Source: a virus (Duplodnaviria; Heunggongvirae; Uroviricota; Caudoviricetes). Taken from it: a stretch of 15,944 nucleotides of DNA. The position numbers and the translations under genes were made by a program. The first letter of the stretch is position 1. The number at the start of each line of letters is the position of its first letter. A model generated the notes under the pieces. The model had not been told where the DNA came from. It saw only the letters and a list, made by a program, of their open reading frames with translations, and made no database searches. Location: the IMG/VR virus record IMGVR_UViG_2713897073_000008. One strand, 5' to 3'. Positions 1-14,422 of the stretch are shown here, in pieces.

Positions 1-267
1 TTACTCTGCAGGTGAAGTCGGCCACTCAATATCAGGTGCGGTTGATGTATCAACACGGTTCAGCAACACCCGATACTTCTTCCAGGCTTCCAGCAACGAG
101 TTTTCTTCCTCCGTTGCGATCTCCAGATCTACAGCATCCTGAAGTGGCGCAATATGCTCACTGAATTCCTGGATGTAGAACTGTGTGGTGACGGTCTTCC
201 AGCCATTCGGCTCCTGCTGTATCGAAGCATACCAGGCTATTTCAATATCGCTATGCTGCGGCAGCAT
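1..267 (-). CDS. tfa: Tail fiber assembly protein (Tfa), short 88 aa form retaining the conserved C-terminal domain
   Basis: C-terminal ~45 aa ([48 protein letters not shown]) match the conserved C-terminus of lambda-type Tfa as I recall it. The protein is about half the usual Tfa length, so the N-terminal part is replaced or truncated. TAA stop at 1-3. Confidence 0.65.
20..71. repeat. 52-bp conserved core of the tfa 3' end, direct-repeat copy 1 (2 mismatches to 1069..1120)
   Basis: ggccactcaatatcaggtgcGgttgatgtaTcaacacggttcagcaacaccc here versus the same string with A and C at the two capitalised positions at 1069-1120. Flanking sequence is related but more diverged. Confidence 0.8.
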
Positions 268-323
268 TTAACCCCTTGTAATTCATCGCCACAATTGATT
301 TAATTCACAAATAAAACTATAAC

Positions 324-992
324 ATGGTGAAATTAATGAAAAAAAACACAGATGATGGGGCTAAAATTTACACACCACTTACCCTAAAGCTTTATGACTG
401 GTGGGTTTTGGGAGTATCAAATCGGCTTGCATGGGGATGTCCTACAAAGGAACACCTTCTTCCACACTTTCTGGAACATTTAGGTAACAACCATCTGGAT
501 ATTGGTGTTGGAACTGGGTTTTACCTTACTCACGTACCTGAGAGTAGTCTGATATCTTTAATGGATTTGAACGAAGCTAGCCTGAACGCGGCATCGACAA
601 GGGCTGGGGAATCAAAAATTAAACATAAAATTAGCCATGATGTTTTTGAACCTTATCCCGCGGCATTACATGGTCAATTTGATTCCATTTCCATGTTTTA
701 CCTTCTTCACTGCCTGCCTGGAAATATATCTACAAAAAGCTGTGTAATACGCAATGCGGCGCAGGCCTTAACTGACGATGGAACTCTATACGGAGCCACA
801 ATTCTTGGTGACGGCGTTGTGCACAATAGCTTCGGTCAAAAACTGATGCGCATTTACAATCAAAAAGGCATCTTTTCAAACACAAAAGATTCCGAAGAAG
901 GCTTAACACATATACTCTCAGAGCATTTCGAGAATGTTAAAACCAAGATTAAAGGTACTGTAGTAATGTTTTCCGCTTCAGGGAAAAAATAG
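324..992 (+). CDS. Class I SAM-dependent methyltransferase (222 aa); alternative start at 336 has the better SD
   Basis: Glycine-rich motif I (HLDIGVGTGFYL) typical of Rossmann-fold SAM methyltransferases. Visibly AT-rich gene on the opposite strand to the flanking tfa sequences. TGGTGA 5 nt upstream of ATG 336. Confidence 0.6.
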   Translation: MVKLMKKNTDDGAKIYTPLTLKLYDWWVLGVSNRLAWGCPTKEHLLPHFLEHLGNNHLDIGVGTGFYLTHVPESSLISLMDLNEASLNAASTRAGESKIKHKISHDVFEPYPAALHGQFDSISMFYLLHCLPGNISTKSCVIRNAAQALTDDGTLYGATILGDGVVHNSFGQKLMRIYNQKGIFSNTKDSEEGLTHILSEHFENVKTKIKGTVVMFSASGKK

Positions 993-1046
993 CATCCAGC
1001 CGCAGCACGTTCTTGCGCACGACGTGCTGCGGCATAATCTCAATGA

Positions 1047-1163
1047 TTACTCCCTGACAGGGTTCGTAGGCCACTCAATATCAGGTGCAGTTGATGTACC
1101 AACACGGTTCAGCAACACCCTGCATGCCTTCCATGCCGCCAGCAATGATGTTTCCTCCTTCGT
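1047..1163 (-). pseudogene. tfa 3' fragment (about 38 codons of Tfa C-terminus, no start codon, in-frame stop immediately upstream)
   Basis: Minus-strand translation gives [39 protein letters not shown], homologous to the C-terminus of the 1..267 Tfa; homology ends abruptly at about 1163, preceded by TGA in frame. Confidence 0.6.
1069..1120. repeat. 52-bp conserved core of the tfa 3' end, direct-repeat copy 2
   Basis: See copy 1 at 20..71; same orientation, 50/52 identical by eye. Confidence 0.8.
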
Positions 1164-1439
1164 TGCATATACTGCTCACCTTTTTCACCCACGATTAACC
1201 AACAGCCAGATTCGCAGGCACGCCCCACCACGGCATATTCATACGCTTGCCATGTCCGAACATTTCAATCCAGCGATATTATGCCTGGGGTGTTCAAGCG
1301 CAATGAAGTACGTATTGTATCTTCGCGATTTTTTATAGGCTAATTGACGCGCAATTCTGAGCGGGGAGCGCACAATCAAACAGCACAGAATGGATCGCTG
1401 ATATTTATCCTTTTGTCGGTTTATCAAACAACAAGAGAG

Positions 1440-2654
1440 TCAATAGCGGATTGTCCCTACATCCATTTCTGGCGAATCCACTAACCAGAAATTATCTGGC
1501 TTTACAGCCAGAATGATCCAGGCAGTGTTTGTTGTTGATGACCAGGAAGGCAGCACATCGTATGCCGGGTCATCGCAAGAATCACGATAACCGTACTCAT
1601 TAAAAAGTGGAGCCATTGCTGCCACAAGATTCACCGCATTCAGCTCATTACCCAGCTTGCGCTCAAAAAGTGCCACACCTGCCGTTCCTTCCACCCACAC
1701 GCCACGGCTGTGACCACTATAACCATAATCAGGGTGGTACGGTGTGTAACCCGTGGTTTCCCTCGTACCAAATAAAAAACGCCCCATATATTTTCGGCAC
1801 TTAGCCGCTTTCTCAGCATCAATATTGGCAACAAACAATCCGCCCCAGGAAGACTGATCCAGCGCCGCTGCGTTGTCATAGTGGGTTGAATGAACCCCCT
1901 GTCGAAATCGGCCTTCATCTTCCACCCACAGACCTCTGATGATGCTCTTTGCCAGCCTGTCAGCCCGCTCACTGAAACCGTCAAATCCCAGCCGTCCCAT
2001 CAGTTCAAACAAAAACCAGATATCAACGTTATGCTCCAGTGCGCACCATTCGGCGACAAAAGTTTCATCAAAATTGCCGTCCACATAACGCCCCTGCCCC
2101 CCTTTATACAGGCCTTCACGCAGGTCGCCTGGTGTGCTCACCAGAAAAGTATCCAGCCAGGCAATGCCTGCCAATAGCTTTTCTCTGACCCGCGCAGTCT
2201 GAGTACCGTCCGGATACTTCTCCAGATAGAAAGCAAGAGCATAATAAACCCATGCCGCATTGCCCAAGCGGTAATAGGTACGCGGTGACATGGCAGACAG
2301 CCTGTTAACAAAAAACTTTACTCCACCGTTTTCATCAACAAGCGCACACAAGCCCGCAACGTATCTTTCTACAGCCTCATGTCGCTGAACCATCAACGCC
2401 AGTGCTGCCAGCGCCTGGTCATACGTGTAACACCGATCTTTCATCACCCTGATCACTTCGGGGTCTGCGTCCTCCGGCATCCAGTAGCTACGAATGAGCA
2501 GTGGAAACTCCAGCGTTGTGATCCACGCATTATCCTCAATCCGAATAAGACGAAACTGTTTTGCTCCCGTCCAGCAACGTCTGAAATAGAAAGTTCCGTC
2601 ACTATTCAAATTAGCGTCGCCGTTAAAATACTCTCCGGTTGTATAAGCATACAT
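1440..2654 (-). CDS. Hypothetical protein (404 aa), function unknown; may be a frameshifted continuation of the upstream portal-like ORF
   Basis: Long uninterrupted ORF with ordinary-looking codon usage and several antisense shadow ORFs. Its 5' end overlaps the 3' end of the portal-like ORF by about 49 bp in another frame. No motif I can name with confidence. Confidence 0.45.
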   Translation of the reverse strand: MYAYTTGEYFNGDANLNSDGTFYFRRCWTGAKQFRLIRIEDNAWITTLEFPLLIRSYWMPEDADPEVIRVMKDRCYTYDQALAALALMVQRHEAVERYVAGLCALVDENGGVKFFVNRLSAMSPRTYYRLGNAAWVYYALAFYLEKYPDGTQTARVREKLLAGIAWLDTFLVSTPGDLREGLYKGGQGRYVDGNFDETFVAEWCALEHNVDIWFLFELMGRLGFDGFSERADRLAKSIIRGLWVEDEGRFRQGVHSTHYDNAAALDQSSWGGLFVANIDAEKAAKCRKYMGRFLFGTRETTGYTPYHPDYGYSGHSRGVWVEGTAGVALFERKLGNELNAVNLVAAMAPLFNEYGYRDSCDDPAYDVLPSWSSTTNTAWIILAVKPDNFWLVDSPEMDVGTIRY

Positions 2655-3235
2655 ATCGACTTTATACTTTTCAGGTTCAGCCTGTTGCTCTCATCACTGG
2701 TCATGGGAATAAAGTCCGGCTCGAGCGCCTCCAGCCAGAAATGAACACCGGCAGAAGGCGTCAGGCTGTTTATGCGCCCGGAAACCATCTGGGCAAACAC
2801 CTCACCATCGCGCAGCCAGGTACGCAGCATCAGACGTTCCAGCATCGGACGGGTAAACTGCCCGGTGACCTCCGGACTGACAGACCATTCACTCCATCGG
2901 GTGCGTATCTCCGCTGCCAGATCACGGGCAATGGCCCCATTGCGTAATACCGGATGTGGCTCGACAATAATCCCGTTTTTCCCCACCACCCGTTCTTCCA
3001 GCTTGTCAAATACACCAATGACCAGATCGTGGTTGTTATCAAGGTAACGGGCCTGCTCACGTAACGACACGGCCCCGTACTGGCTTAACTGATCGGCAGT
3101 TCGGTTCTCCCGTCGGGCTTTGTGTGTCCGCGTCGTTTTTACGGCCTCATAAGCCTGGATCACCGCACGGGAACGCAGCCTTGCCGCTTTCCATCCTGGT
3201 GAAAAAACGCCAATCACATCATCAAGAATTGCCAT
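2606..3235 (-). CDS. Phage portal protein-like, N-terminal region only (209 aa); apparently truncated or frameshifted
   Basis: Arg-rich N-terminus followed by SLREQARYLDNNHDLVIGVFDKLEERVVGKNGI, resembling the conserved N-terminal motif of lambda-family portal proteins as I recall it. The ORF is far too short for a portal (~500+ aa). Start overlaps the end of the upstream ORF, as is typical of phage head genes. Confidence 0.4.
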   Translation of the reverse strand: MAILDDVIGVFSPGWKAARLRSRAVIQAYEAVKTTRTHKARRENRTADQLSQYGAVSLREQARYLDNNHDLVIGVFDKLEERVVGKNGIIVEPHPVLRNGAIARDLAAEIRTRWSEWSVSPEVTGQFTRPMLERLMLRTWLRDGEVFAQMVSGRINSLTPSAGVHFWLEALEPDFIPMTSDESNRLNLKSIKSICMLIQPESILTATLI

Positions 3236-3557
3236 CAGAACCTCGCCAGCCGGTAATCGAGTTATCAGAACTGTTAATTTTTATGGTATACCGCGCCTCT
3301 GAACAGGGGCGCGTTTCTGGCAACAGCTCGTCCCCTTCACATAACCCGGCAGCAACATCCAGGAAGACCTGTCTGATGCTCCTTCTGGCTGCTGCCTCAT
3401 AAAACTCCAGCGCTGCACCTTCAACACGGTCCAGCGAGATGTCCAGGTCAAAAATTTCACCGTCAAAGCGTTTTTTGTCCCGTAACGCTAAAGTTACCGT
3501 AACTTTATTCTCAAAATTGCGGATCCCTTTCACAATCAGTTCATAGTTTTGAGTCAT
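3222..3557 (-). CDS. Hypothetical phage protein (111 aa), immediately downstream of holin and overlapping the portal-like ORF start
   Basis: ATG at 3557 sits 4 nt after the holin stop with GGAGAG about 10 nt upstream. It occupies the position where endolysin or terminase/head-completion genes would be expected but has no lysozyme-like motif. Confidence 0.5.
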   Translation of the reverse strand: MTQNYELIVKGIRNFENKVTVTLALRDKKRFDGEIFDLDISLDRVEGAALEFYEAAARRSIRQVFLDVAAGLCEGDELLPETRPCSEARYTIKINSSDNSITGWRGSDGNS

Positions 3558-3561
3558 TGAA

Positions 3562-3777
3562 TTACTCTCCCCGTGCAGCCTTACGCTTGTCTTCTCTGAT
3601 TTTGAAGTACAGATTTGTCAGATAAGTCAGGAAGCCCAGAACCAGACTCCCCAGTACACCAATCGCAGCCCACTGTGACGGACTGACCTGATCAAGCCAC
3701 TGTAAAAACCAGTAGCCAGCACTGCCTGCGGAGGTGCCATAGGCAATGCCCGTTGAAATTTTGTCCATGGATTTCAT
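3562..3777 (-). CDS. Pinholin, phage 21 S21 family (71 aa; dual-start motif M1-K-S-M4)
   Basis: [71 protein letters not shown]: two hydrophobic segments (first Gly/Ala/Ser-rich, SAR-like), charged C-terminus, Met1/Met4 dual start as in S21-71/S21-68. Closely matches my recollection of the S21 pinholin. Confidence 0.8.
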
Positions 3778-3835
3778 AGCCTCACCTCCGCAAATAACGG
3801 ATGGCGTAGTTTTACACTGAGAAATGAAAGGGATT

Positions 3836-3862
3836 TGAAAAGAAAAGCCCGCAAAAGCGGGC
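3836..3862 (-). terminator. Putative intrinsic terminator (minus-strand sense): GCCCGC-AAAA-GCGGGC hairpin followed by U-rich tract
   Basis: Plus strand gaaaagaaaaGCCCGCaaaaGCGGGC; on the minus strand the 6-bp GC stem is followed by UUUUCUUUUC. Lies between the tRNA cluster and the holin. Confidence 0.35.
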
Positions 3863-3937
3863 GAAACAATATATACAGTAAGGAAAGCACTCTATCCAAC
3901 AAACCACCCACAGTTAATCGGAATAAAAGCAGAGTGC

Positions 3938-4010
3938 TTATGAATGATCGCCTGCCCGAAGGTTAGTATTTCTGCACAGCAATTTTGCAAAAAAAGGCGA
4001 TCATTCATAA
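3938..4010. repeat. Perfect 15-bp inverted repeat (TTATGAATGATCGCC / GGCGATCATTCATAA) separated by 43 bp
   Basis: Arms at 3938-3952 and 3996-4010 are exact reverse complements. Non-coding region between the tRNAs and the holin. Confidence 0.7.
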
Positions 4011-4069
4011 CTTAAACGTCCTTCAGTCACTCCGGGATTTCCCATCATCGCAGACTGAAAGACTCTGAC

Positions 4070-4144
<75 letters not shown>

Positions 4145-4147
4145 ATA

Positions 4148-4223
<76 letters not shown>

Positions 4224-4225
4224 AC

Positions 4226-4302
4226 TGGACCGCCACCGGGGACTCGAACCTCGCACACTCAACTTAAAGAGTTGACGCTCTTTCCTGATGAGCTAGTGGC
4301 GG
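4226..4302 (-). tRNA. Atypical tRNA-like gene; canonical fold gives anticodon UUU (Lys) with non-canonical C33 (a register shift would give UCU, Arg)
   Basis: Reverse complement CCGCCAC-UA-GCUC-AUCAGGAAA-GAGC-G-UCAAC-UCUUUAA-GUUGA-GUGUG-CGAGG-UUCGAGU-CCCCG-GUGGCGG-U-CCA: 7-bp acceptor stem (C1-G72), 4-bp D-stem with GG in D-loop, 5-bp anticodon stem, T-stem with one A/C mismatch, CCA encoded. Only 2 nt and 1 nt from the neighbouring tRNAs. Confidence 0.55.
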
Positions 4303-4303
4303 T

Positions 4304-4379
4304 TGGTGGCCCTTGCTGGATTTGAACCAGCGACCTGGCGATTATGAGTCGCTCGCTCTCACCACTGAGCTAAAGGGCC
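4304..4379 (-). tRNA. tRNA with anticodon CAU, most like tRNA-Ile2 (lysidine-modified, AUA-decoding; ileX/ileZ type) rather than elongator Met
   Basis: Reverse complement GGCCCUUUAGCUCAGUGGUGAGAGCGAGCGACUCAUAAUCGCCAGGUCGCUGGUUCAAAUCCAGCAAGGGCCACCA; very similar to E. coli ileX as I recall it. Anticodon loop CUCAUAA. Confidence 0.8.
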
Positions 4380-4388
4380 GGGCGCAGG

Positions 4389-4417
4389 ATAATAACGTTA
4401 CGAAATCAATGTTGCAA
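4389..4417 (-). promoter_or_regulatory. Putative sigma70 promoter for the tRNA cluster (-35 TTGCAA, 17-bp spacer, -10 TATTAT), ending about 9 nt upstream of tRNA-Ile 5' end
   Basis: Minus-strand reading TTGCAA(4417-4412) cattgatttcgtaacgt TATTAT(4394-4389) cctgcgccc then the tRNA 5' G. Upstream A/T-rich direct repeats AAAAATCACC x2 at about 4422-4450 could be UP-element-like. Confidence 0.3.
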
Positions 4418-4499
4418 GCATTCAAAAATCACCTGGTTAAAAATCACCCTTATCTCCTCCACCAGCGCATTCACCATGTCTATCCGAGATAAGTGACAC

Positions 4500-4524
4500 A
4501 AAAAAACCCGCTTGATGCGGGTTT
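4500..4524 (-). terminator. Intrinsic terminator on the minus strand (CCCGC-AUCAA-GCGGG + U7); tR'-like, upstream of the tRNA cluster
   Basis: Plus strand aaaaaaaCCCGCttgatGCGGGttt; on the minus strand the hairpin is followed by a 7-U tract. Confidence 0.45.
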
Positions 4525-4644
4525 AAGTTGTGTGGCGAAGCGACCACTCTTAACAGATTAAGATAGTTTTTGCGTACGCGTTAGTGATTTTTTCATAATT
4601 ATCTGTATCCTGTGGCTATTTCTCTTGCGCAAAGGATGCTTTTG

Positions 4645-5523
4645 ATGACGCAGCAACTCGAAAACATGCCAATAACAGAAATCGAAATTGCCTACGGTGG
4701 AGAGGCATACGCAGATAATCAGATCGACGCGAAAACATTAGGCGAAGCCTTAACCTCTCTTAGTGCCCTGATTGAACACGCCGAAAAAATAATTAATGGC
4801 GAAACAGCAGAGCCGAAAGTCAACATCAAGGCAACAAAAGAAGGTTCATTTACTTTGCTTGTTGCTGTGATGGGGAGCATAAAAACTATTAACGCCCTTG
4901 GCCTCGTTGCAGGTGGTGGAGTTGCCGCAGGTGGCGTACTCGGGATAATCGAATGGCTCAAAGGGCGTAAAATCAGCTCCATTGTCGTCGATGAACAAAA
5001 AGATACAGCAGAAATCGAAGTGGATGGTGAGAAGGTTAAATGCAGTAACGACATTCAAAAATTAATAACCAGTCCAATCATCCGAAAAGAACTGGATAAA
5101 TTAATCTATAAACCCCTGCAGACTGAAAAACCATCCACGTTCTCAGTTTCACAGCAGAAGCATAAGGTAGTCAGGGTGACGCAAGCTGAAGCAGTAAGTT
5201 TTAAAACTGCAAAATCCACCTTTGTCGAGAAAACGCACGTAACGACACGCCAAGCTAATGTACATTTTGCTAATGTTCGATTCAAGCAAGGCAAAAGCTG
5301 GGATATCATCCTGCCAAATGGCGAAGAAGTTAGCGCATCTATGAAAGATGAGGCTTTTCTTGAACGGGTTGAACACAACCAAGCAGCATTCTGTAAGGGT
5401 GATCTTTTTGTTGTAGAACTGACAGAAACAACAAAAGAAACAAATGGCGCGCTGTCTAAACCACGCTATAGTATTACTAAGGTTATACGCCACAGAGCGG
5501 CGGCAGATAGGAAACTACTTTAA
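4645..5523 (+). CDS. Hypothetical protein (292 aa from ATG 4645; ORF open from GTG 4612) with central glycine-zipper hydrophobic segment; first gene of AT-rich three-gene operon
   Basis: AAGGA SD 9 nt upstream of ATG 4645. Central FTLLVAVMGSIKTINALGLVAGGGVAAGGVLGIIEWL (GxxxG-rich) flanked by charged, K/T/E-rich soluble regions. Antisense frames carry only short shadow ORFs. No recognisable catalytic motif. Confidence 0.6.
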   Translation: MTQQLENMPITEIEIAYGGEAYADNQIDAKTLGEALTSLSALIEHAEKIINGETAEPKVNIKATKEGSFTLLVAVMGSIKTINALGLVAGGGVAAGGVLGIIEWLKGRKISSIVVDEQKDTAEIEVDGEKVKCSNDIQKLITSPIIRKELDKLIYKPLQTEKPSTFSVSQQKHKVVRVTQAEAVSFKTAKSTFVEKTHVTTRQANVHFANVRFKQGKSWDIILPNGEEVSASMKDEAFLERVEHNQAAFCKGDLFVVELTETTKETNGALSKPRYSITKVIRHRAAADRKLL

Positions 5524-5526
5524 ATC

Positions 5527-5772
5527 ATGTCAATCCTAAGCATTATGCTTTACATCACTGTATTCATGGCTGTCGCAGCGACGGTCAGATATGCTGTGCT
5601 TAGGTTCTTGGTTTGGGTAAAGCCGAATGCGTATATTGAACTAACCTACACCGATCCTGAAGGCAGAACCGCTAAAAGGAAAGTCAGCGTTAGAAACGAA
5701 AATGACGCAGAAGAGTTGGCGCTACTGCTACGCGAACTCAAAACTCGCAACGAAGCAAGTGCAGGAAGGTGA
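5527..5772 (+). CDS. Small membrane protein (81 aa; one N-terminal TM helix, charged C-terminal tail)
   Basis: Starts 4 nt after the upstream stop. ILSIMLYITVFMAVAATVRYAVLRFLVWV hydrophobic helix, then K/R/E-rich tail. Confidence 0.55.
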   Translation: MSILSIMLYITVFMAVAATVRYAVLRFLVWVKPNAYIELTYTDPEGRTAKRKVSVRNENDAEELALLLRELKTRNEASAGR

Positions 5773-6159
5773 ATGGCGAACACTAAATCCTACCTGGCAA
5801 TGCAGGCATGGTTTACCACCCTTATCACTGCGGGATTGAATTTCCTTTTTGACTGGCTTCCTCAATTAGCCTTCTTCAAATCATTGGCGCCTGGAGCTGC
5901 TGTCGGCTTATCTCATGTGGTAATTCTTCTTATCGCTTACATAGGTTTGCCTACGCTTAATGATGTAAGAATGAAAAGGGAAATAAAAACGGCCAGAAAA
6001 TTCATCACGAACTGCCTGGCCAACCCTAACCTAACACCAGACCAAATTGCGCACTACAACCAATGTCTTATCGATCTAGACAATAAGCTATTAAAAAACA
6101 TAAATATTCGTATTGATGCTTTATCTGACGCCGAATCGAAAGCTCAAGCAAACGAGTAG
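5773..6159 (+). CDS. Small membrane protein (128 aa; two predicted TM helices, soluble C-terminal domain)
   Basis: ATG directly abuts the upstream TGA (tgaATG), indicating translational coupling. Hydrophobic helices at about residues 10-32 and 40-62. The stop lies only 13 bp from the convergent Q gene stop. Confidence 0.55.
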   Translation: MANTKSYLAMQAWFTTLITAGLNFLFDWLPQLAFFKSLAPGAAVGLSHVVILLIAYIGLPTLNDVRMKREIKTARKFITNCLANPNLTPDQIAHYNQCLIDLDNKLLKNINIRIDALSDAESKAQANE

Positions 6160-6172
6160 TAACAGTCATAAC

Positions 6173-6529
6173 TTATGATAGAATCAAGCATATACATCCA
6201 TCAATAAAGCCTAATGCAGTTTGCAGCTCCTTTCTTATAGTTCCATCTGAGCACCTGCGTTTCTTCGCGATTGAGCGTAGAGAAACACCAATAACAAAGT
6301 GAGCTATGAGCAGCTCATATTCCTCTGGTTTATACTTTCGCAACCGAGCCACACAACCGTCTATCATGATGCCTTCATCATCATCACACTGGAGACGTGA
6401 CTTTTTGCCATGTGGCAAAAGCCTCTTGAAGCCCGCTGCTATCGGTTGCCAATCGACACCGCTATTTTCTGCTGCAGCCCATGCCCCCCAGCGATCTAAA
6501 ACCTCATACATATCACGCCCCATTACCAT
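6173..6529 (-). CDS. Phage antitermination protein Q (Q82/QuuD-like family)
   Basis: Contains LDRWGAWAA...DW..IAAGFK and the CDDD...C motif I associate with the short Q family of lambdoid prophages. Sits immediately downstream of rusA, the canonical nin-Q arrangement. Start may be an internal Met (6521 or 6511). Confidence 0.7.
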   Translation of the reverse strand: MVMGRDMYEVLDRWGAWAAAENSGVDWQPIAAGFKRLLPHGKKSRLQCDDDEGIMIDGCVARLRKYKPEEYELLIAHFVIGVSLRSIAKKRRCSDGTIRKELQTALGFIDGCICLILS

Positions 6530-6884
6530 CGCCTCTGATTTCGCAAATCTTCACGCCCAGCCGCCCACCAGGAACGAGCTGACCGCGCACAATATTGATT
6601 TCATCAAACTGCTCGTCGTCTATAAGTAGTCCGGCATGCGTCAGCGCATCCAGTGGTGCCTTCAGGATATTGTCCAGGTCGCGGCGGCGCTTATCCGGTG
6701 GCTCTGCAATCACCTTTATCGCCAGCCTTCCGGACAGGCTTAATTTCAGCCGCTGCTGGCGAACAATAAGCGCCACAGCCCGGCGATAACGCTTTCCCTC
6801 CTCCGAGATAAAATATGTGCTGCCACGGCGTCGCCAGTAAGTGTTCACCGTCGGCGGGTAAGGTAAAACCAAATCTATGAGCAT
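6513..6884 (-). CDS. rusA: Crossover junction endodeoxyribonuclease RusA (Holliday junction resolvase)
   Basis: 123 aa with the PDKRRRDLDNILKAPLDALTHAGLLIDD region matching the RusA catalytic core (DxRRRDLDN) and N-terminal PxxNxYWR motif. Position upstream of Q. Confidence 0.85.
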   Translation of the reverse strand: MLIDLVLPYPPTVNTYWRRRGSTYFISEEGKRYRRAVALIVRQQRLKLSLSGRLAIKVIAEPPDKRRRDLDNILKAPLDALTHAGLLIDDEQFDEINIVRGQLVPGGRLGVKICEIRGDGNGA

Positions 6885-6896
6885 CAGTCACCTCTT

Positions 6897-7946
6897 TTAC
6901 CCAAGCACGCCAGTTGCAAAGGCGTGATCAAGAAAACGAAAAATTAAATCAACCTGAGAACCATGCTTTTCTTCGAACGCCAGCGGATCCGCATGAAGCT
7001 CGTTGTGATGCTCCCGACACAGCGGTAGCGTGAAAATATCGTGAGATTTTGTCCCCATTCCGCCCTGACCATGACCAATCAGGTGATGGGGATCGTCGGC
7101 TGGCTTACCACAACACGCACACGGCTGTGTCTTCACCCAGCGAGTGTATTTCTCGTTAACCCAGCGGCGACGTTTAGGTCGTTTCATGAAAGATTCCGGA
7201 GACTCAGGATCAACGGCAATGCTGACCACCGTCTTTTCCTGTGGTGGGTTCTGTTGCTGGTGGGCGTGAGGCAGCGGCGCAAGATTTTTTGTGCGCTGTT
7301 TCAGTATGCTGGTGGCGGTCTGCTCTCCCGGTACGATGTCGCTTTCACGGTACATGGAGCGGATTTTTTCCACACGCAACCCCAGCGAACGACGTAATAC
7401 CGCTTCCGGTAGCGCGTCCGCCACCTGATTGCGGACCGCCCACCAGGATAATTCAGCCAGAGATAATTCACGCTCCTGCGTACCGCTTATTGCGTGACCG
7501 ATGACGTCAATCATCCATGCTGACAGGTTTTGATGAGCAAGTTGCTCGAGTGATTCGGATGTCTGGTCACGCAGCTGGTTGTCGCAGTGCCAGCACAACA
7601 CCATTGCGCCGGTACCATAACGGTGAATGACGGTTTCGCTGTGATGATAATCGCCGTGTGGCCACTGGCAGGATTTAATATGGCGCAACAGCCAGTCAGA
7701 CAATGCACCAGCACCACCAGCAGCACGAATCACCCGCTCATCGCTGAAAAATGGCAGTAATGATTTATCCTCCGCCAGCGGCTGGCGAACGGCAGGAACG
7801 ACCCCGGACGGCAGACCGCGCATGCTTTTTGGCTCCGGTTCAACCAGCACTCTGCCGTTATGGAATACCTGCATGGATTCACGACCTGGCTTAACGATAA
7901 CCACCCCAAGTTCCGGCACCAGAACAGGTCGAAGTAATACCCGCAC
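6897..7946 (-). CDS. Phage nin-region protein, DUF968/YdfU-like with C-terminal Cys/His-rich HNH-like motif (349 aa)
   Basis: C-terminus CACCGKPADDPHHLIGHGQGGMGTKSHDIFTLPLCREHHNELH (CxxC...HH...H...C..HH..H). Size and position upstream of rusA fit the DUF968 proteins of lambdoid prophages. Confidence 0.65.
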   Translation of the reverse strand: MRVLLRPVLVPELGVVIVKPGRESMQVFHNGRVLVEPEPKSMRGLPSGVVPAVRQPLAEDKSLLPFFSDERVIRAAGGAGALSDWLLRHIKSCQWPHGDYHHSETVIHRYGTGAMVLCWHCDNQLRDQTSESLEQLAHQNLSAWMIDVIGHAISGTQERELSLAELSWWAVRNQVADALPEAVLRRSLGLRVEKIRSMYRESDIVPGEQTATSILKQRTKNLAPLPHAHQQQNPPQEKTVVSIAVDPESPESFMKRPKRRRWVNEKYTRWVKTQPCACCGKPADDPHHLIGHGQGGMGTKSHDIFTLPLCREHHNELHADPLAFEEKHGSQVDLIFRFLDHAFATGVLG

Positions 7947-7947
7947 G

Positions 7948-8220
7948 TTACCTCCAGATGCGTTGCTGGAATGTGCGGGACGGACGCGGTGGGCGTTCGG
8001 AATAAGGGAGCCTGACAGAAATTATCCAGTGTCGGAAGTCAGGGCCGAGGTCTTTCTGAAAGTCGTACCCACGCCTGCGGTAGTTCTGAATCAGCCATTC
8101 GGCCTGTTCTTCAGTGCATGGGGCATGCTGGTACCAGTCATATTTGAATGTATGAGAACGCCGCCCGTGCCAGCTGGCAAGGTCGGTATCAGAATTGTGA
8201 TGTTTGGTATTGTGCGCCAT
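7948..8220 (-). CDS. Hypothetical phage protein (90 aa), nin region
   Basis: ORF whose stop overlaps the DUF968 start (ATGA). No motif recognised; start codon choice uncertain (weak SD). Confidence 0.45.
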   Translation of the reverse strand: MAHNTKHHNSDTDLASWHGRRSHTFKYDWYQHAPCTEEQAEWLIQNYRRRGYDFQKDLGPDFRHWIISVRLPYSERPPRPSRTFQQRIWR

Positions 8221-8295
8221 CGGTTTTCTCTGCTGGCGCAGCAGGTGCCAGTTGTTCAGGCTGGCCTGTAGATTGTAAACCAGAATACGTAAAAC

Positions 8296-8317
8296 AAAAA
8301 ACCCGCCGAAGCGGGTT
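8296..8317 (-). terminator. Intrinsic terminator (minus-strand sense) downstream of the HTH-peptidase gene; identical 22-mer to 10131..10152
   Basis: AAAAAACCCGCCGAAGCGGGTT on plus; on the minus strand CCCGC-UUCG-GCGGG followed by UUUUUUGUUUU. Confidence 0.5.
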
Positions 8318-8321
8318 ATGC

Positions 8322-9443
8322 CTAGTGAATTTTGCCTCTAAGAGTTCGGTAAGATTGTAGTGAAACAACATCACCACTTCCTGGCAGTTCATGAACCGCA
8401 GGAAGATCATCTCCTACTAACTCATAAAAAATGTCCACTTCTATATCCATTTCATCAGCTATACGCTGTGGGTCGTATCCTAACTCTTCAAATAAAAACG
8501 ATAAAGCCCGACGGAATAACTCAGGACGCTCATGAGGGATTAGATAATCTTCTTTTTCATCAATAGCTTCCCCTTTCCGTTTCAACCCCATAAATGCAGT
8601 TCTGTACTGCTCATCAGTCAAAAGTCCTAATTGATGAGCCCTGTAAACAATGGCAGCCTTACTTACTTTCCATGTCAACTTAAATTGGCTTAGTCCCTGC
8701 CAATTTATCCTCCCCCCCACAGGTCTTGGAAAATATTTCGCCATCGACGTTCTGGGAAGCAACAGAGCAGAGGCAAAACGGTTTGCCTGGGATTCAGTTA
8801 ATCTATCCCCAGTAGAAATTCCTTCATGAAGAATCAAATGGGCAACCTCATGAGCAATATCAAAGCGTTGCCTACAAGGTGAATTTTTAGCTGTATTTCG
8901 AACAATAAAAGGCCTTCGTAGAGGAACAGACAGTGCATCTACTTCATCCGAAACGGAGTCAAATGAAGTAACAAACGCCCCAAGTTTCTCGGCAAGGCGA
9001 GTCATATTTTCAATTGGGCCAAAGCCTAAGCCCCACTCAATACGACATTTTTCTGCCGCTCGCTCGATATCTTCTTGTGTATGGACACGAAATTCAGGAA
9101 ATCGAACAGGTGACAAATTAAGGTTATCTTCAAATACATCAATAAAACGACGATAAAACTCAGCCTTAGCGAGTGTTGATAGCTTCGTTGACATCCTTGT
9201 CGAGGCGCGTTTACGAAAATGTACAATCTCTTCATTAACAGGAGAATGTTCCTGCCCTTCGAAAAAGGCGGGCTTCACGCGCAAAACCTCGGCTAATTTA
9301 TTTATAAGCTCTGGGGATGGAGTAGCTGAACCAGACTCCAGTCGCTGTACATACTGGCGTGTTTTTTCAACCTTCTCAGCAACCTGCTCCAGAGATAGCT
9401 CGTGATACAGACGAGCAAGTCTTAAATTAGTACCGTTAAACAC
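8322..9443 (-). CDS. XRE-family HTH fused to ImmA/IrrE-type (HExxH) zinc metallopeptidase domain, 373 aa; RosmerTA RmrA-like candidate
   Basis: N-terminal HTH (LSLEQVAEKVEKTRQYVQRLESG) and central HEVAH zinc-binding motif in the context typical of the ImmA/IrrE (M78/DUF955) family. GTG start with GGGTGA upstream, 10 nt after the upstream gene stop. Confidence 0.75.
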   Translation of the reverse strand: MFNGTNLRLARLYHELSLEQVAEKVEKTRQYVQRLESGSATPSPELINKLAEVLRVKPAFFEGQEHSPVNEEIVHFRKRASTRMSTKLSTLAKAEFYRRFIDVFEDNLNLSPVRFPEFRVHTQEDIERAAEKCRIEWGLGFGPIENMTRLAEKLGAFVTSFDSVSDEVDALSVPLRRPFIVRNTAKNSPCRQRFDIAHEVAHLILHEGISTGDRLTESQANRFASALLLPRTSMAKYFPRPVGGRINWQGLSQFKLTWKVSKAAIVYRAHQLGLLTDEQYRTAFMGLKRKGEAIDEKEDYLIPHERPELFRRALSFLFEELGYDPQRIADEMDIEVDIFYELVGDDLPAVHELPGSGDVVSLQSYRTLRGKIH

Positions 9444-9453
9444 ATTTCACCCA

Positions 9454-10047
9454 CTATTTGCTATTTTGTTTCTTTTCCTTCTCAGTCTTAGACGCACTGA
9501 TAGGTTCTAGTTCGATAGGTACCGGTGCTGGAGGTACATCATCGACAGAGTTCAGCATAACAACACGGTCCGCACCATATGTCCAAGTTGACACGATCTC
9601 ACCAAACACGTTATAGCCATTAAAAATGACTCTACCACCCTCGCCTTCAAATTCAGGCTTTTCAACCACAAAGCGATGCATAGTTGGAGTAGTCTCCTCT
9701 GACTCAAAGAGTCGATCAGCATCATTTCTTTTGAAAAAACCGCGTTTCTTGGGGTTATCTGCGTCATCAGTAAAGAAACGAATAGGGACATTCCCAATTG
9801 AAAACGTAAGATCCATGCCAGGATTAAGTAGTCTTAACCAGTCATATGTCTTTCGTACGCACATTTGTAGCAACGCCTGCCGCTGACGCCCAAATGTACA
9901 ACCACCACGAGTGTAATTATCATCATAGGGCGATGACAATAACTCATGAGTAATATCCTGTATCCTGAGCAACTCCTCAGCTATAATGGTTAAACGCACC
10001 TCTGTTAACTCAGGAAAGAACTCCCAAGGGAATGGATGGTTCTGCAT
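9454..10047 (-). CDS. Hypothetical protein (197 aa from ATG 10047; ORF table extends to TTG 10095), upstream partner of the HTH-peptidase; candidate toxin/effector
   Basis: GGAG SD 9 nt upstream of ATG 10047. No TM segment and no recognisable motif. Visibly AT-rich, co-oriented and tightly linked with 8322..9443. Confidence 0.55.
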   Translation of the reverse strand: MQNHPFPWEFFPELTEVRLTIIAEELLRIQDITHELLSSPYDDNYTRGGCTFGRQRQALLQMCVRKTYDWLRLLNPGMDLTFSIGNVPIRFFTDDADNPKKRGFFKRNDADRLFESEETTPTMHRFVVEKPEFEGEGGRVIFNGYNVFGEIVSTWTYGADRVVMLNSVDDVPPAPVPIELEPISASKTEKEKKQNSK

Positions 10048-10082
10048 AGACACTTCTCCGCCTAATCCGTGCAAAAAACGAC

Positions 10083-10128
10083 TTTTGTCAACCAAGATAT
10101 TGGTGCATATTCATAATTTTGTCAACCA
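10083..10128 (-). promoter_or_regulatory. Two direct repeats of TGGTTGACAAAA (each containing a consensus -35 TTGACA) immediately upstream of the 197 aa gene; candidate promoter/operator
   Basis: Minus-strand TGGTTGACAAAA at 10128-10117 and 10094-10083, 34 bp apart, between the upstream terminator and the start codon. Confidence 0.3.
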
Positions 10129-10130
10129 AT

Positions 10131-10152
10131 AAAAAACCCGCCGAAGCGGGTT
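10131..10152 (-). terminator. Intrinsic terminator (minus-strand sense) upstream of the two-gene module; identical 22-mer to 8296..8317
   Basis: AAAAAACCCGCCGAAGCGGGTT; on the minus strand the hairpin is followed by UUUUUUAUU. Would insulate the module from transcription coming from the ParA-like gene. Confidence 0.5.
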
Positions 10153-10497
10153 AAGTGCGGGTGCGTTGAGGATGCCTGACACATCAGAGGTGGCGAGGGA
10201 TTTCTCCCTCGCCTGGTCTCTTACTCCTCAGGTTCGTAAGCTGTGAAGACAGCGACCTCCGTCTGGCCGGTTCGGATTCGTACCTCGCAGAGGTCTTTCC
10301 TCGTTATCAGTACCGCAACAATTTCGTATTCATGATTCATTTCATCTAAAACAGTTCATAAACCTAAATAAATTCAAAAAATCACAACACAAATAAATAT
10401 AAATTATCTCATCCTGAAGAACGATAGGATTATTTAGAATTAATAACAATTAATGTAACAATAATTATCAATCCAGATTATTCAAATAAAATGTCAT

Positions 10498-11544
10498 TTA
10501 CCATATGGAGTTGTGAATGAACTTTAATTCATTTTTTATTTTGTTAACAGATAAATTCACGGATGTCCTAACTCTATTCACAGTCATTGCATCTCCTGGA
10601 TTTAACAACTCTAATGGTTTAGACTTAGCACTTGACATTCTGCCACTACCCAGAAAATCATCAAGAATCACAATGTGATTATTAGGATCATCTGTTGTAA
10701 AATTACTAATATTTTGTCGAATTACCTCTCTTACAGCTTCGATGTACATTTTTGTCTGTTGATTTGGTTTATTCCTTGCTCCTGCCACTGTTGACCATCC
10801 GCAATGGGTAATAACCACCATCTGAATTTTTGGTGTATGGCCATCAGACGGCATTATCTTTCTAAATTCTGATGTTGGTTTAGTCAGAGTATCAATAAGT
10901 AATCTTAATGAATTAATCGATTGCTGATCTGTCCTCACTGGAACTATTAAAGCATCTGTTGCATGCCAAGATAAATGCGTCGCTCCAGAGAAAAAAGGTG
11001 ATGTATCAATTAACGCTTTTGTAGTACCAGTTTCAACCATTTCTCTGGCTATTTCTTTCTTCAGAGAAAAAAGAATTGTATCAATAACAACCTGCTGAGT
11101 AGCCCCAGAAATTGTTCTGGCTTGAGCCAGAGCATTCGCCATTTGCGTAGGTAGAAGATAAAGTTGACTATCAGATTGAATAAAATAGTTATTCTTGCCC
11201 GCAAACCAAGCATTAGTTGATGATACTAGCTTTGCAGCACGCGTTGCAAATCCAAGCCCTGGAACAAAATAAGGCATTAAGAGGTCATTTGCAGTTGTGC
11301 TAGACGAAGATGCATAATTATTGTCAAAAAAATATGATAAATTTCCTTGCGGGCACGTATCCACGATTAATGCGTTATCCGCCAAATATGACAGATTAAA
11401 AGTTAAAGATGTCTTACCAATGCCTCCCCGTAAATTACATACTGTATATTTATCATATTTCGGCAAATTAAGACTTCTTACATTACCGTCAGCAACTTCG
11501 AATTGACGCTCTATCAGAGCATTAACATTTGATTCACTAGTCAT
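10498..11544 (-). CDS. ParA/MinD-superfamily P-loop ATPase-like protein with degenerate signature residues (348 aa)
   Basis: Deviant Walker A-like NLRGGIGKTS (R in place of the signature K of KGGxGKT) followed about 20 aa later by ALIVDTCPQGN (ParA/Soj motif LLIDxDPQGN with D to C), and a later ALIDTSP hydrophobic-D motif. Very AT-rich gene with AT-rich flanks. Confidence 0.6.
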   Translation of the reverse strand: MTSESNVNALIERQFEVADGNVRSLNLPKYDKYTVCNLRGGIGKTSLTFNLSYLADNALIVDTCPQGNLSYFFDNNYASSSSTTANDLLMPYFVPGLGFATRAAKLVSSTNAWFAGKNNYFIQSDSQLYLLPTQMANALAQARTISGATQQVVIDTILFSLKKEIAREMVETGTTKALIDTSPFFSGATHLSWHATDALIVPVRTDQQSINSLRLLIDTLTKPTSEFRKIMPSDGHTPKIQMVVITHCGWSTVAGARNKPNQQTKMYIEAVREVIRQNISNFTTDDPNNHIVILDDFLGSGRMSSAKSKPLELLNPGDAMTVNRVRTSVNLSVNKIKNELKFIHNSIW

Positions 11545-11753
11545 ATCGCCACCATTAGTTTTACACTTTTATTGATGATATGGAAAACTAACCTAGTTGT
11601 CAACAATGGATTAAAAAACAAACACACAAGCGTTTATCAAAAGCACCTTGATTGGTGATACTACCGTGTCTTTCAGCCAAACAGTTCAGTATGTAAAGCG
11701 AATCCAACATCAATTAAGAACGTTTTCAGCGCTCCCCCAGTTGTCTAGATGTC

Positions 11754-11927
11754 AAACTTCATGCGCTCTCCTGTCGAAATAAACGTACTGATTAATCATG
11801 CCCAAGGACATTTCGCGTTTTACAGCGATATCACGGCGGGGAACTCCACACTGATGAAGCTTCCGCACTAGCTCAATATCGCTTTGCGGATGTTTTTTTG
11901 ATTGGTTATAACCCCCCCTCTTAACAT
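11754..11927 (-). pseudogene. Short HTH-like ORF (57 aa from ATG; frame open upstream to about 12018 without a start), probable remnant of a DNA-binding gene; contains a C7/G7 homopolymer
   Basis: Minus-strand translation ...SYAVRAKAQELGINRMLRGGGYNQSKKHPQSDIELVRKLHQCGVPRRDIAVKREMSLGMINQYVYFDRRAHEV*. The GVPRRDIAV...SLGMINQYV segment resembles the C-terminal HTH of serine recombinases or transposase OrfA proteins. Below the 60-aa ORF cutoff. Confidence 0.25.
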
Positions 11928-12028
11928 CCTATTGATACCCAGTTCCTGCGCTTTCGCTCTGACAGCATAACTAGAACGATCAATCAACCCTCCTATGCTT
12001 TCGGCCGTCAACGCGTCTACACAATTGC

Positions 12029-12484
12029 CTAAGCGCCATGATTTCCCTCATGCACAACCTGTTCACCGAATGTCTCTCGAAAACCATTCTGGTAAAATGC
12101 CAGTACACGCTGCATAGCTTCGCTCTTCCGGCACTCGCGACAGATTATGTTCTGACGCCTGTCGTAGCGACGTATTTCTCCGTCAGGTAATGACCAGATA
12201 AGGTCCGGATCAACCGCAGATGGTTTCTTCAGCTTTGCCCTTGAGAGCTTTTTACGGGCATTTTGCCAGTCCTTACGCGCCTGTTCAGACGGGAATAACC
12301 CGTAACCAGAGTTGTATACATCGCCACTGGCAACCAGCTCTCTGGCCAGAACGCTCATCAGATATCTTGTTGCCCCAGTTTTAGTTTCCAGTTGTCGTAA
12401 CGTCTCGCGCCCACTCTGGCGTACGAGTTCAACAACCTGCCCTTTAATTTTTTCCCGCTCTTCTTGTGTAAAAACTTTTGCCAC
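12029..12484 (-). CDS. Hypothetical phage protein (151 aa) in the replication module position downstream of the O-like gene
   Basis: ORF following the initiator gene. Basic, possible winged-helix-like segment (ETLRQLETKTGATRYLMSVLARELV), CxxC pair (CRECRK). No Walker motif, so not a DnaC-type loader. Confidence 0.5.
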   Translation of the reverse strand: MAKVFTQEEREKIKGQVVELVRQSGRETLRQLETKTGATRYLMSVLARELVASGDVYNSGYGLFPSEQARKDWQNARKKLSRAKLKKPSAVDPDLIWSLPDGEIRRYDRRQNIICRECRKSEAMQRVLAFYQNGFRETFGEQVVHEGNHGA

Positions 12485-12524
12485 AAGCCCTCCTGAAAAT
12501 TACCTCATGACCAGAAATTAACAC

Positions 12525-13601
12525 TTACCCCCTGAAGCCCGGCGGAATTTCGTTATCCGGTTCAGAAATATGATTCACACAACGCTGGTTGTTCGTGCCG
12601 CTTACCGGGAGCAACCAGGGGTTCTCAAAATTCCGGTCCGGTCCAAAAAACGTCGTCGCTCGCTGAACAAATTCCGTTCCCGTTTTCCCGGTAGCCGCCA
12701 AGTATCTTGCGTAACGCCTCACGCCATCCAGCATGGCCTCTGGTGGCACCCCCTCGCGTAATCTGGCCTTCCAGGCACTGAAAGCGGATTTCTTCGGGTT
12801 TGCCCCGGCACGCAACGGGTATTCCCGCCAGACCTGTTCGAACACATCAGGATAATCCACTCGTCCCACAGGCTGCCCGGTGTTTTCCGGGACTACCCGA
12901 TCGGCTTCCCGCTGAATGGCGGAATCGGCTTCAGGCTGCTGAAGTTGGTGTGATTGCTCCTGCCTTGCGGTCATCACCTGCTGCACAGCGCCCGAATCGG
13001 CTTTCAGCGCATACGCTGAATCGGCTTCCGGTGTCGTGCCTGCGGGCTGGCCAGGAGTGACGGTCTGAACATCCCCTGCCTGGTTCGTGGCGTTTTTTAC
13101 GCCATGGACCATAGTGTTTTGATCTTCTTGATCTGTATCTTTATCTGTATCTTTATCTGTCGTGACTCGTCGTGACATGTGCGTGACATTTCGTGACTCG
13201 CCGTGACAATCGCCATTTTGTTCCCGCTTTCTTTCCCTCTCTCGCTGCGCCCTCTTGCGCTCTGCCGGAGATTTTGCGGTTTGCGAAATATTGCCGTTGT
13301 CCTCTTTCAGCACCTGGCGTTTTTCCCATCCAGTGATTAAATCACCATCAAGTACCCGCCCCTGCATCGTCTGCAAAATTGAATCAATTACCTCTTCTGT
13401 CACGTCGAGCGCACTTGCCAAATCTTCTGTCGTGACATCAATGTGACCTCGCGTGACATTTCGTGACGCGCTCACCAGGAGGTGGATATACACTGCCATC
13501 ACTGTTGCAATTGGCTGCCCTGACACCCTGGCAATTGTTCGCCACTTAGGGTCATTTGGCATGTCATGCCATAATCTGAGCCAGGCGTTAGCCATACTCA
13601 C
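12525..13601 (-). CDS. Phage replication initiation protein (O-like / replisome organiser), 358 aa, containing ori-like iterons within its coding sequence
   Basis: Position after the Cro/CII-like genes. Low-complexity acidic/KDTD-repeat linker encoded by the iteron and AT-rich repeats. Lambda O similarly contains ori within the gene. Family assignment by synteny and architecture, not by alignment. Confidence 0.55.
   Translation of the reverse strand: MSMANAWLRLWHDMPNDPKWRTIARVSGQPIATVMAVYIHLLVSASRNVTRGHIDVTTEDLASALDVTEEVIDSILQTMQGRVLDGDLITGWEKRQVLKEDNGNISQTAKSPAERKRAQRERERKREQNGDCHGESRNVTHMSRRVTTDKDTDKDTDQEDQNTMVHGVKNATNQAGDVQTVTPGQPAGTTPEADSAYALKADSGAVQQVMTARQEQSHQLQQPEADSAIQREADRVVPENTGQPVGRVDYPDVFEQVWREYPLRAGANPKKSAFSAWKARLREGVPPEAMLDGVRRYARYLAATGKTGTEFVQRATTFFGPDRNFENPWLLPVSGTNNQRCVNHISEPDNEIPPGFRG
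13131..13207. repeat. Ori-like array: 12-bp tandem repeat ATCTGTATCTTT x2.5 followed by five CGTGAC iterons at about 10-bp (one helical turn) spacing
   Basis: CGTGAC at 13161, 13171, 13182, 13192 and 13202. Adjacent A/T-rich 12-mer tandem at 13131-13160. Confidence 0.6.
13399..13467. repeat. Second cluster of CGTGAC / GTCACG iteron-like repeats inside the initiator gene
   Basis: GTCACG at 13399; CGTGAC at 13431, 13452 and 13462; TGTGAC at 13442. TCTGTCGTGAC is shared with the first array. Confidence 0.5.
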
Positions 13602-13666
13602 CTCTTTTGATACCGAATCTTTTTACTCACAAATTGCCGGAAGTGATCCGGTATGAATATTGCGAG

Positions 13667-14092
13667 TCAATGCACAGCCACAATATTTCCTGCAGGGCCA
13701 CCACGATTCATCTGGTTGAAACCAGCGATCGCCACTGCGACAAAATCATCAGCGTCTCTCACCAGTCGTTCCCGCGTCTCCACTAGTTCCCGAAAATACG
13801 CTGAGCTATGACTGCGCATTCGGGCCACCAGCAGAGGTGGCATTGCTTTTTCGATAGCTGGTAACAACGCCTGAATTTTTTTAACCGCATCAGGGGTGTC
13901 TTTCTCCACCCAGCGGAAAATTTTCTGAGTATTGCGAGCCAGGGCTTCCGGATGGCTGTCGTCATACAGTTCCGGGAACGTCATTCCCAGCTCGAAATAC
14001 GCTTTGGTAATTTTCGCAGCCGGTACTTTTTCGCCGTCCGGATGCGCCCAGGCATTCATCGCCATGCGGATGTGTTCATGCTTGATTTTCAT
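13667..14092 (-). CDS. YdaT-like / CII-like phage regulatory protein (141 aa)
   Basis: Second gene of the rightward operon after the Cro-like HTH, overlapping its stop (ATGA). Size and position match Rac YdaT (about 140 aa) and CII-type regulators. No alignment performed. Confidence 0.5.
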   Translation of the reverse strand: MKIKHEHIRMAMNAWAHPDGEKVPAAKITKAYFELGMTFPELYDDSHPEALARNTQKIFRWVEKDTPDAVKKIQALLPAIEKAMPPLLVARMRSHSSAYFRELVETRERLVRDADDFVAVAIAGFNQMNRGGPAGNIVAVH

Positions 14093-14343: not shown

Positions 14344-14422
14344 ATCACCCTCACAATGTGAACTTTGAGTACATGCCATAACAGAACTGACAGTACATTC
14401 AAGAGCGAATATCATTGAACTT
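14344..14422. promoter_or_regulatory. Divergent promoter/operator region between Cro-like and repressor genes, with two AGTACAT heptamers 24 bp apart
   Basis: AGTACAT at 14368-14374 and 14392-14398. The repressor ATG has no SD, consistent with a leaderless PRM-type transcript. Confidence 0.4.

Follow-up and report, generated by a model that had tools for sequence, protein, structure and literature searches.

The window analysed here, a stretch of 15,944 bases from a tailed-virus record (IMG/VR IMGVR_UViG_2713897073_000008; all coordinates are window positions), very probably holds at its left the late end of a cryptic lambdoid prophage lying between potB and potC in an Escherichia coli lineage that includes the enterotoxigenic E. 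coli (ETEC) strains TW10598 and B2C. In all likelihood its lysis and morphogenesis region reflects ordinary prophage decay by two microhomology-mediated deletions (deletions A and B), which left a lone pinholin beside the remains of a portal and a tail-fibre gene. We identify each fragment, resolve both junctions to single bases, list the genes lost in deletion B and trace the two junctions through other genomes. A sequence-only reading of the same DNA had described the region as decayed, with a pinholin lacking endolysin, spanin and terminase and with a truncated portal, and profile searches of Pfam, PHROGs and NCBIfam support this description; the four open reading frames (ORFs) on which it was built are all present on the minus strand.

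Protein identities were taken from these profile searches, defence genes from PADLOC and tRNAs from ARAGORN and Rfam. Positions 1000-4600 were compared by megablast with complete E. coli genomes (n=5,426), a phage collection was searched as well, and chimeric proteins were looked up by exact sequence in an assembly index. The main comparison strain, 99-3165 (NZ_CP029981.1, with PGAP annotation), carries the same element adjoining potB. Against the complete genomes the region splits into three sharp-edged blocks, and the phage collection gave identical edges; there the block from 3253 on corresponds to the part of several induced E. coli phages that carries ydfR, the holin and tRNAs. In the window's own contig potB lies 232 bp left of the prophage end, and in 99-3165 the early region continues to int and then potC. 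The element is thus bounded on both sides and no intact morphogenesis set lies just outside the window, a way out that the sequence-only reading had left for its own conclusion and that is excluded by these boundaries. Window position 15944 is the exact position of an IS1B in 99-3165 (sister locus 22175-22872), and the right end of the window is probably an assembly break at a copy of this insertion sequence (IS).

Two deletion junctions in the late region

The features that carry the argument are listed from right to left, the named ORFs of the region all lying on the minus strand (aa, amino acids; nt, nucleotides):

3562-3777, minus strand: intact S21-type class II holin (pinholin), 71 aa (PF04971, 'Bacteriophage P21 holin S')
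3222-3557, minus strand: ydfR (DUF1327) with an altered 3' end, 111 aa (PF07041)
3247-3255: junction B, an imperfect 9-bp microhomology CA[G/A]CC[G/C]GTA (alignment to 99-3165)
3235-3255, minus strand: last 21 nt of the W/Ad1 head-tail adaptor gene (alignment to 99-3165, where the 70-aa W ends there)
2606-3235, minus strand: truncated portal ORF, 209 aa (PF05136, positions 3-149 of 354)
2676-2680: junction A, 5 bp of microhomology, TTCAG (window, mEp460_ev081 portal and the tail-fibre genes of phiSTEC1575 and strain 214-4 in a three-way alignment)
1440-2680, minus strand: 3' two-thirds of a side tail-fibre gene, codons ~198-609 of 609 (phrog_13714)

By their profile matches, the holin and YdfR are both ordinary members of their families. 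The holin covers positions 1-63 of 64 of the PF04971 profile (E=1.4e-35; 121.5 bits, cut-off 26) and also matches phrog_20 and phrog_9876 ('holin'). Its N-terminus, MKSMDK, shows the Met1/Met4 dual-start motif, which would give antiholin and holin forms, in keeping with the earlier assignment to the S21 type, and by eye its residues ~8-27 are Gly/Ala/Ser-rich and residues ~36-58 strongly hydrophobic, with a 13-residue tail after them. Its DNA is the same as in 99-3165, where PGAP names the product 'class II holin family protein'. The 111-aa protein encoded next to it belongs to the YdfR family (PF07041, positions 1-90 of 93, 132.5 bits, cut-off 25) and consists of native residues 1-103 followed by WRGSDGNS, which replaces Cys104 and the stop codon of the 104-aa native protein. 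The sequence-only reading was right that this protein has no lysozyme features: Pfam, PHROGs and NCBIfam matched it to neither a lysozyme nor a spanin, and since DUF1327/YdfR was its sole match in these collections, a compact endolysin or spanin was ruled out. It is not, however, an odd substitute for an endolysin, as YdfR is the usual gene between S and R of this phage lineage. The order S-YdfR-lysozyme is present in 99-3165, in a further related prophage and in phage vB_EcoM-606R7, the last with the canonical order Q-tRNAs-S-YdfR-R-Rz-TerS-TerL. A literature search on the function of YdfR/DUF1327 gave nothing useful.

Endolysin, spanin and terminase genes are absent from the entire window by the ORF list, Pfam and PHROGs, and between the late-gene antiterminator gene Q and potB there is no TerS, TerL, capsid, tail tube, tape measure, J, endolysin or spanin. 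Alignment to 99-3165 locates the more recent part of this loss. The window is 100% identical to 99-3165 over 1-3255 and 3256-15944, with zero substitutions, save for a gap of 5,393 bp (deletion B) that is present in 99-3165 and gone from the window. In 99-3165 the left flank CAGCCGGTA is followed by CCCGGG and the right flank CAACCCGTA by ATCGAG; in the window CAGCCGGTA runs directly into ATCGAG, which places the exact crossover in GTA (3253-3255), within a stretch where 7 of 9 positions match. In the coding direction, ydfR codon 103 is joined to the last 21 nt of W, and this short stretch (3235-3255) holds the native ribosome-binding site of the portal gene, GAGG, together with the overlapping TGATG stop/start; it is the preservation of these elements at the fusion to the end of W that explains the 14-nt overlap of the ydfR and portal ORFs.

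Down the minus strand of 99-3165, the deleted segment encodes the lysozyme rrrQ, two small ORFs, Rz with an embedded Rz1, a pseudogene, TerS, TerL and the 70-aa W/Ad1 adaptor, and Pfam and PGAP agree on this content (PF00959 lysozyme, PF03245 Rz, PF06085 Rz1, PF07278 DUF1441 for TerS, GpA_ATPase and GpA_nuclease for TerL). The lysozyme begins MSAKIKYGLSAAVLALIAAGASAPQIL, an Ala/Gly-rich, weakly hydrophobic N-terminus that suggests a signal-anchor-release (SAR) endolysin. The SAR endolysin and Rz/Rz1 partners that the sequence-only reading had expected of an S21-type pinholin are thus present in 99-3165 within the deleted 5,393 bp and missing from the window, and their absence is a loss from the cassette, not an argument against the family membership of the holin. 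We propose that a crossover at GTA fused ydfR codon 103 to the end of W and would thereby have cost the element its lysozyme, Rz/Rz1, TerS, TerL and W. Zero substitutions against 99-3165 in 15.9 kb imply that this event was very recent.

Junction B was found in 0 of the 5,426 complete genomes, and the chimeric 111-aa product on 4 contigs. Among these are one of 34 kb from GCA_012387515.1 and one from the Logan assembly of SRR6077271, both of which match the window at 100% over the part in common. An artefact of assembly or collapse, with the lysozyme-to-terminase segment still residing in the genome, could account for the absence of the junction from complete (mostly long-read) E. coli genomes, particularly as lambdoid lysis and terminase genes are repeated among prophages and can confuse short-read assemblers. 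We nevertheless consider this quite unlikely: the same junction and chimeric ORF recur in an NCBI draft and an independent Logan assembly, over 4 contigs in all; the junction lies in unique sequence with an exact overlap of just 3 bp and not in a long repeat prone to collapse; and both of its flanks are otherwise perfectly colinear with 99-3165. On these alignments deletion B is taken as real.

Junction A lies in the portal ORF, whose 209 aa comprise native portal residues 1-187 of 502, then 22 out-of-frame residues from tail-fibre DNA, ending at a stop at 2606. Positions 2676-3255 are 99.5% identical in nucleotide sequence to the mEp460_ev081 portal and, more generally, 98-99.5% identical to the portal start and the end of the preceding gene in mEp460-type and cdtI-type phages. 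With 132 bits on TIGR01539, the ORF stays under the full-length cut-off of 172.7, and together with its partial PF05136 match this marks it as a fragment of a family member and not a functional portal.

The adjoining 404-aa ORF (1440-2654) corresponds to residues 206-609 of a 609-aa side tail-fibre protein and matches phrog_13714 ('tail fiber protein') at positions 228-631 of 631 (E=1.8e-249). It starts at internal Met206, the first ATG of a frame that is open from codon 198, and the N-terminal 197 codons, where a full-length protein of this kind would have its virion-attachment domain, are deleted. Nucleotides 1221-2680 are 98.6% identical to the tail protein region of phiSTEC1575-Stx2k. The 404-aa domain has no sequence match in Pfam, NCBIfam, PADLOC or PDB, and a homologue appears in one PGAP record as 'glucosidase family protein'.

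As the sequence-only reading had noted, the portal ORF ends early and overlaps the 404-aa ORF (by 49 nt, in different frames), and tfa remnants follow (1047-1166 and 1-174). At TTCAG, portal codon 187 is joined out of frame to tail-fibre codon 198, and the discontinuity at 2676-2680 is a deletion junction and not a frameshift. Of the 5,426 complete genomes 10 carry it, TW10598 and B2C among them, and the 209-aa chimera is listed in 203 assembly-index blocks. The size of deletion A, ~16.7 kb, is estimated by synteny with a prophage of strain 214-4 at the same potB site, in which the order is holin-DUF1327-rrrQ-Rz-TerS-TerL-W-portal-protease/capsid-connectors-tail tube-G/T-tape measure-M-L-K-I-J-Lom-tail fibre. 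A crossover at TTCAG would have cost the element everything beyond portal codon 187, the genes for protease and capsid, those for connector, tube, tape measure and tip, J, lom and the N-terminus of the tail fibre, the remaining C-terminal part of which may be an enzymatic receptor-binding domain.

All inspected loci with junction A still carry TerL and Rz, which indicates that deletion A preceded deletion B and that the latter arose in a small sub-lineage; the order of the two events is thus inferred from their nesting in the population. A repeat scan of the window revealed no direct-repeat family across either junction, and repeats or IS ends as drivers of the junctions were dropped, as the alignments show solely exact overlaps of 5 bp and 3 bp. 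RecA-independent slippage or illegitimate recombination is the presumed mechanism of both deletions.

Erosion has continued elsewhere in the lineage. In TW10598 (NZ_CP035846.1, locus 8353-11009) the rrrQ lysozyme is split by the IS21-family element ISEc62, and B2C probably bears the same insertion, to judge from an equal hit spacing of 9,769 bp. Whatever the case in B2C, deletion B and the ISEc62 insertion make at least two independent inactivations of the endolysin. In the draft genome GCA_049987985.1 (locus 7582-9523), homology to the reference prophage breaks off within the tail-fibre fragment, with pepT as the next gene called; the methyltransferase gene and tfa remnants of the left prophage end (see below), potB and potA appear to be lost. 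This pattern is the familiar stepwise erosion of a grounded prophage, and the locus offers a base-resolved case of it: a head-tail deletion, then an IS in the endolysin gene or a lysis-terminase deletion and, in some strains, a deletion on the pepT side. It may be of use as a lineage marker or as a teaching case.

Survival of the pinholin

Pinholins form ~2 nm channels that collapse the proton motive force, the peptidoglycan then being degraded by the SAR endolysin; the usual partner of a pinholin is a SAR endolysin, set free by this collapse (PMC9636201). Switching on the late operon of the present element would be predicted to depolarise and kill the cell through the pinholin, with neither lysis nor release of particles. 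With the lysis, terminase and head and tail genes gone between Q and potB, the gene set of an inducible, particle-forming lambdoid prophage (terminase, portal, capsid, tail and lysis genes) is lacking, and the element alone is predicted to be unable to lyse the cell or package DNA, as the sequence-only reading had concluded.

The further suggestion of that reading, that the holin may have been kept for some other reason, finds no support. Since there are no substitutions in 15.9 kb relative to the endolysin-bearing 99-3165, the survival of the holin is uninformative about selection: there has been no time for it to decay, and its presence calls for no special explanation. The alternative, that the pinholin, with or without YdfR, is kept by selection as a domesticated function and that loss of the endolysin was adaptive tuning instead of plain decay, we regard as very improbable. 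Candidate roles would be a non-lytic suicide or abortive-infection switch or a module that permeabilises the membrane or promotes vesicles. In its favour, Q, the late promoter/terminator block and the dual-start holin are all intact, so the holin is probably still expressible; the endolysin was knocked out twice independently (deletion B and ISEc62 in rrrQ) and the holin survived each time; the same prophage bears anti-phage cargo (RosmerTA and the candidate PDC-S42, see below); and an effect of a cryptic-prophage lysis module on vesicle production is described for DLP12 (PMC7918800). Yet, besides the uninformative identity to the sister strain, two knockouts of a 534-bp gene in a decaying region of ~8 kb are an anecdote and no statistic, deletion B took the terminase genes and W too, which fits random and not targeted deletion, and no holin-dependent cargo gene lies nearby. 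The specific form of this idea, an orphan pinholin (possibly with YdfR) under an intact Q and late promoter that has been co-opted as a non-lytic suicide switch, is likewise considered very improbable. Were it true, induction, or the Q of a superinfecting lambdoid phage acting in trans, would cut the infection short through collapse of the membrane potential, with nothing released, such a switch would complement RosmerTA and PDC-S42, and the repeated loss of the endolysin would reflect selection.

Several points weigh against decay by two deletions as set out above, or limit it. The head module of strain 214-4 is just 76% identical to the window portal, and the 16.7 kb and the list of genes lost in deletion A are consequently synteny estimates, not derived from a direct ancestor. 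The 4 contigs with junction B are perhaps not independent, as the Logan assembly of SRR6077271 and GCA_012387515.1 could share reads. Other prophages of the genome could supply endolysin, spanin and terminase in trans, the median E. coli genome having 5 places that match this region. Finally, late-gene expression and the lethal-without-lysis phenotype are predictions.

The least credible alternative is the one raised by the sequence-only reading itself, a frameshift in the portal gene near 2606-2654 with the 404-aa ORF as its out-of-frame remainder: it would give the same picture of two ORFs overlapping by 49 nt in different frames, but the 404-aa product has no portal match and is matched end to end by tail-fibre PHROGs, portal homology breaks off at 2676 and tail-fibre homology begins from 2680, and a full-length portal of this type (502 aa) has a quite different C-terminal sequence, so that the PHROG match and the nucleotide alignments lead us to reject it.

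Late leader, cargo genes and left end

Upstream of the holin, and at the left end of the prophage, the following features accompany the decayed region:

6173-6529, minus strand: late-gene antiterminator Q, apparently intact (PF06530, E=1.1e-44)
4497-4584, minus strand: conserved block with a strong hairpin and T-run (phage comparison, consensus hairpin scan)
4070-4379, minus strand: four phage tRNAs, Gly-TCC, Thr-TGT, Lys-TTT and one with a CAT anticodon (ARAGORN, Rfam, PGAP)
3847-3862, minus strand: terminator-like GC hairpin with T-run, 70 nt upstream of the holin start (consensus scan alone)
1047-1166, minus strand: tfa remnant 2, 3' end only (PGAP pseudogene in 99-3165; its translation parallels remnant 1)
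324-992, plus strand: class I S-adenosylmethionine-dependent methyltransferase, a moron between the tfa remnants (several Pfam methyltransferase domains; phrog_2132, E=8e-156)
1-174, minus strand: tfa remnant 1, 3' end only (PF02413 Caudo_TAP, positions 75-131 of 131)

The Q protein shares 85-91% amino-acid identity with Q of Stx1 phages and of mEp460_4F5. Positions 4584-4517 are 88% identical to the equivalent site in mEp460_4F5 and Stx1_499, with the hairpin and T-run following at 4524-4497, and the block at 4497-4584 is probably the late promoter/qut/tR' region cognate to this Q type. Between Q and the block, a three-gene cassette on the opposite strand (4612-6159, plus strand) encodes a LAPAL-motif protein of 303 aa (NCBIfam NF053583), which matches the PADLOC candidate system PDC-S42 at E=3e-53, and two small products, 81 and 128 aa long, that look like membrane proteins. 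We considered whether this 1.6-kb cassette cuts the late operon off from Q and dropped the idea, as the viable phages mEp460_4F5 and Stx1_499 share both the layout (the same Q type, then opposite-strand morons) and the block. Other opposite-strand cargo occupies the same position in phages of this Q type, and the site looks like a moron hotspot.

The CAT-anticodon tRNA (4304-4379, minus strand) is called Met by ARAGORN and Ile by PGAP in sister genomes, and is probably a lysidine-modified tRNA-Ile2. Between the tRNA-Gly and holin genes there is a perfect 16-nt inverted repeat, TTATGAATGATCGCCT / AGGCGATCATTCATAA (3938-3953 and 3995-4010), with a 41-nt loop; this repeat and the 3862-3847 hairpin may be regulatory or terminator structures of the late leader. 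Downstream of Q and the late promoter block, the two deletions would have left the four tRNAs, the pinholin intact and YdfR nearly so, a portal stub of 209 aa with its own ribosome-binding site and a promoterless C-terminal fragment of the tail fibre.

A doubtful small ORF with a TTG start lies downstream of the tail fibre (1239-1427) and is frameshifted relative to a 99-aa phiSTEC1575 gene. At the left prophage end, tfa remnant 1 lies inside an 88-aa ORF (1-267) and is annotated in 99-3165 as a PGAP pseudogene 'missing N-terminus', and the methyltransferase gene is flanked by a 101-nt direct repeat, 83% identical, at 17-117 and 1066-1166. Overlapping remnant 1, positions 41-244 (minus strand) match the Rfam family IS009 (RF02111) with 129 bits against a gathering score of 117. 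Farther to the right, PADLOC identified a RosmerTA anti-phage toxin-antitoxin pair (8322-10095, minus strand), consisting of RmrA (373 aa, helix-turn-helix and M78 peptidase; PDLC03943, E=4e-201) and RmrT (213 aa; PDLC03929, E=7e-92), and this defence cargo may be the reason why the gutted prophage persists. The early region also encodes a 348-aa ParA-family ATPase (10498-11544, minus strand), beside which a Hok/Gef pseudogene is annotated in 99-3165 (locus 16451-16552; window ~10221-10322).

Comparison with known systems

The element is no new kind of system, and the process behind it is routine prophage decay of a kind already known. The phenomenon of grounded prophages in general is the subject of a review (PMC6379469). 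Its meaning lies largely in annotation: the 209-aa and 404-aa ORFs are pseudogene fragments, and are so flagged by PGAP in sister strains, and the 111-aa protein is best annotated as YdfR with an altered C-terminus. Of mild interest is the apparent outlasting of its partners by a lethal pinholin that seems still to be wired to Q.

With the lysis cassette of phage 21 (pinholin S21 68/71, SAR endolysin R21, Rz/Rz1) the element shares a holin whose match to the P21 family takes in 63 of 64 profile positions and which begins with MKSM, and the ancestral partner in 99-3165 is a PF00959 lysozyme with an Ala/Gly-rich hydrophobic N-terminus, followed by Rz with embedded Rz1. Unlike phage 21, this lineage has ydfR as an additional gene between S and R, and endolysin and spanin are gone from the window, such that the membrane-depolarising step alone could remain. 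The portal stub resembles the mEp460/cdtI-type head module (98-99.5% nucleotide identity to its first 560 nt) and the fibre fragment the side tail fibre of phiSTEC1575-Stx2k (98.6% over the 3' 1.46 kb of the tail region), but in contrast to those genes the portal is down to 187 of 502 residues and the tail fibre to ~412 of 609, the two being fused out of frame.

The closest likeness is to the cryptic lambdoid prophages of E. coli K-12 (Qin, DLP12, Rac and e14), which likewise are permanent parts of the chromosome and show large internal deletions, portal, tail-fibre and tfa genes reduced to pseudogene fragments, IS insertions and retained moron cargo. The gene order of Qin, essQ-ydfR-rrrQ-rzpQ, is the same as in the related elements here, and e14 has a portal pseudogene adjoining tail-fibre remnants. 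Unlike Qin and DLP12, which keep holin, endolysin and spanin genes, the lysis cassette in the window is reduced to holin and YdfR, and the element further differs from the K-12 cryptic prophages in its site, potB/potC, and in having deletion junctions that can be dated relative to living sister strains.

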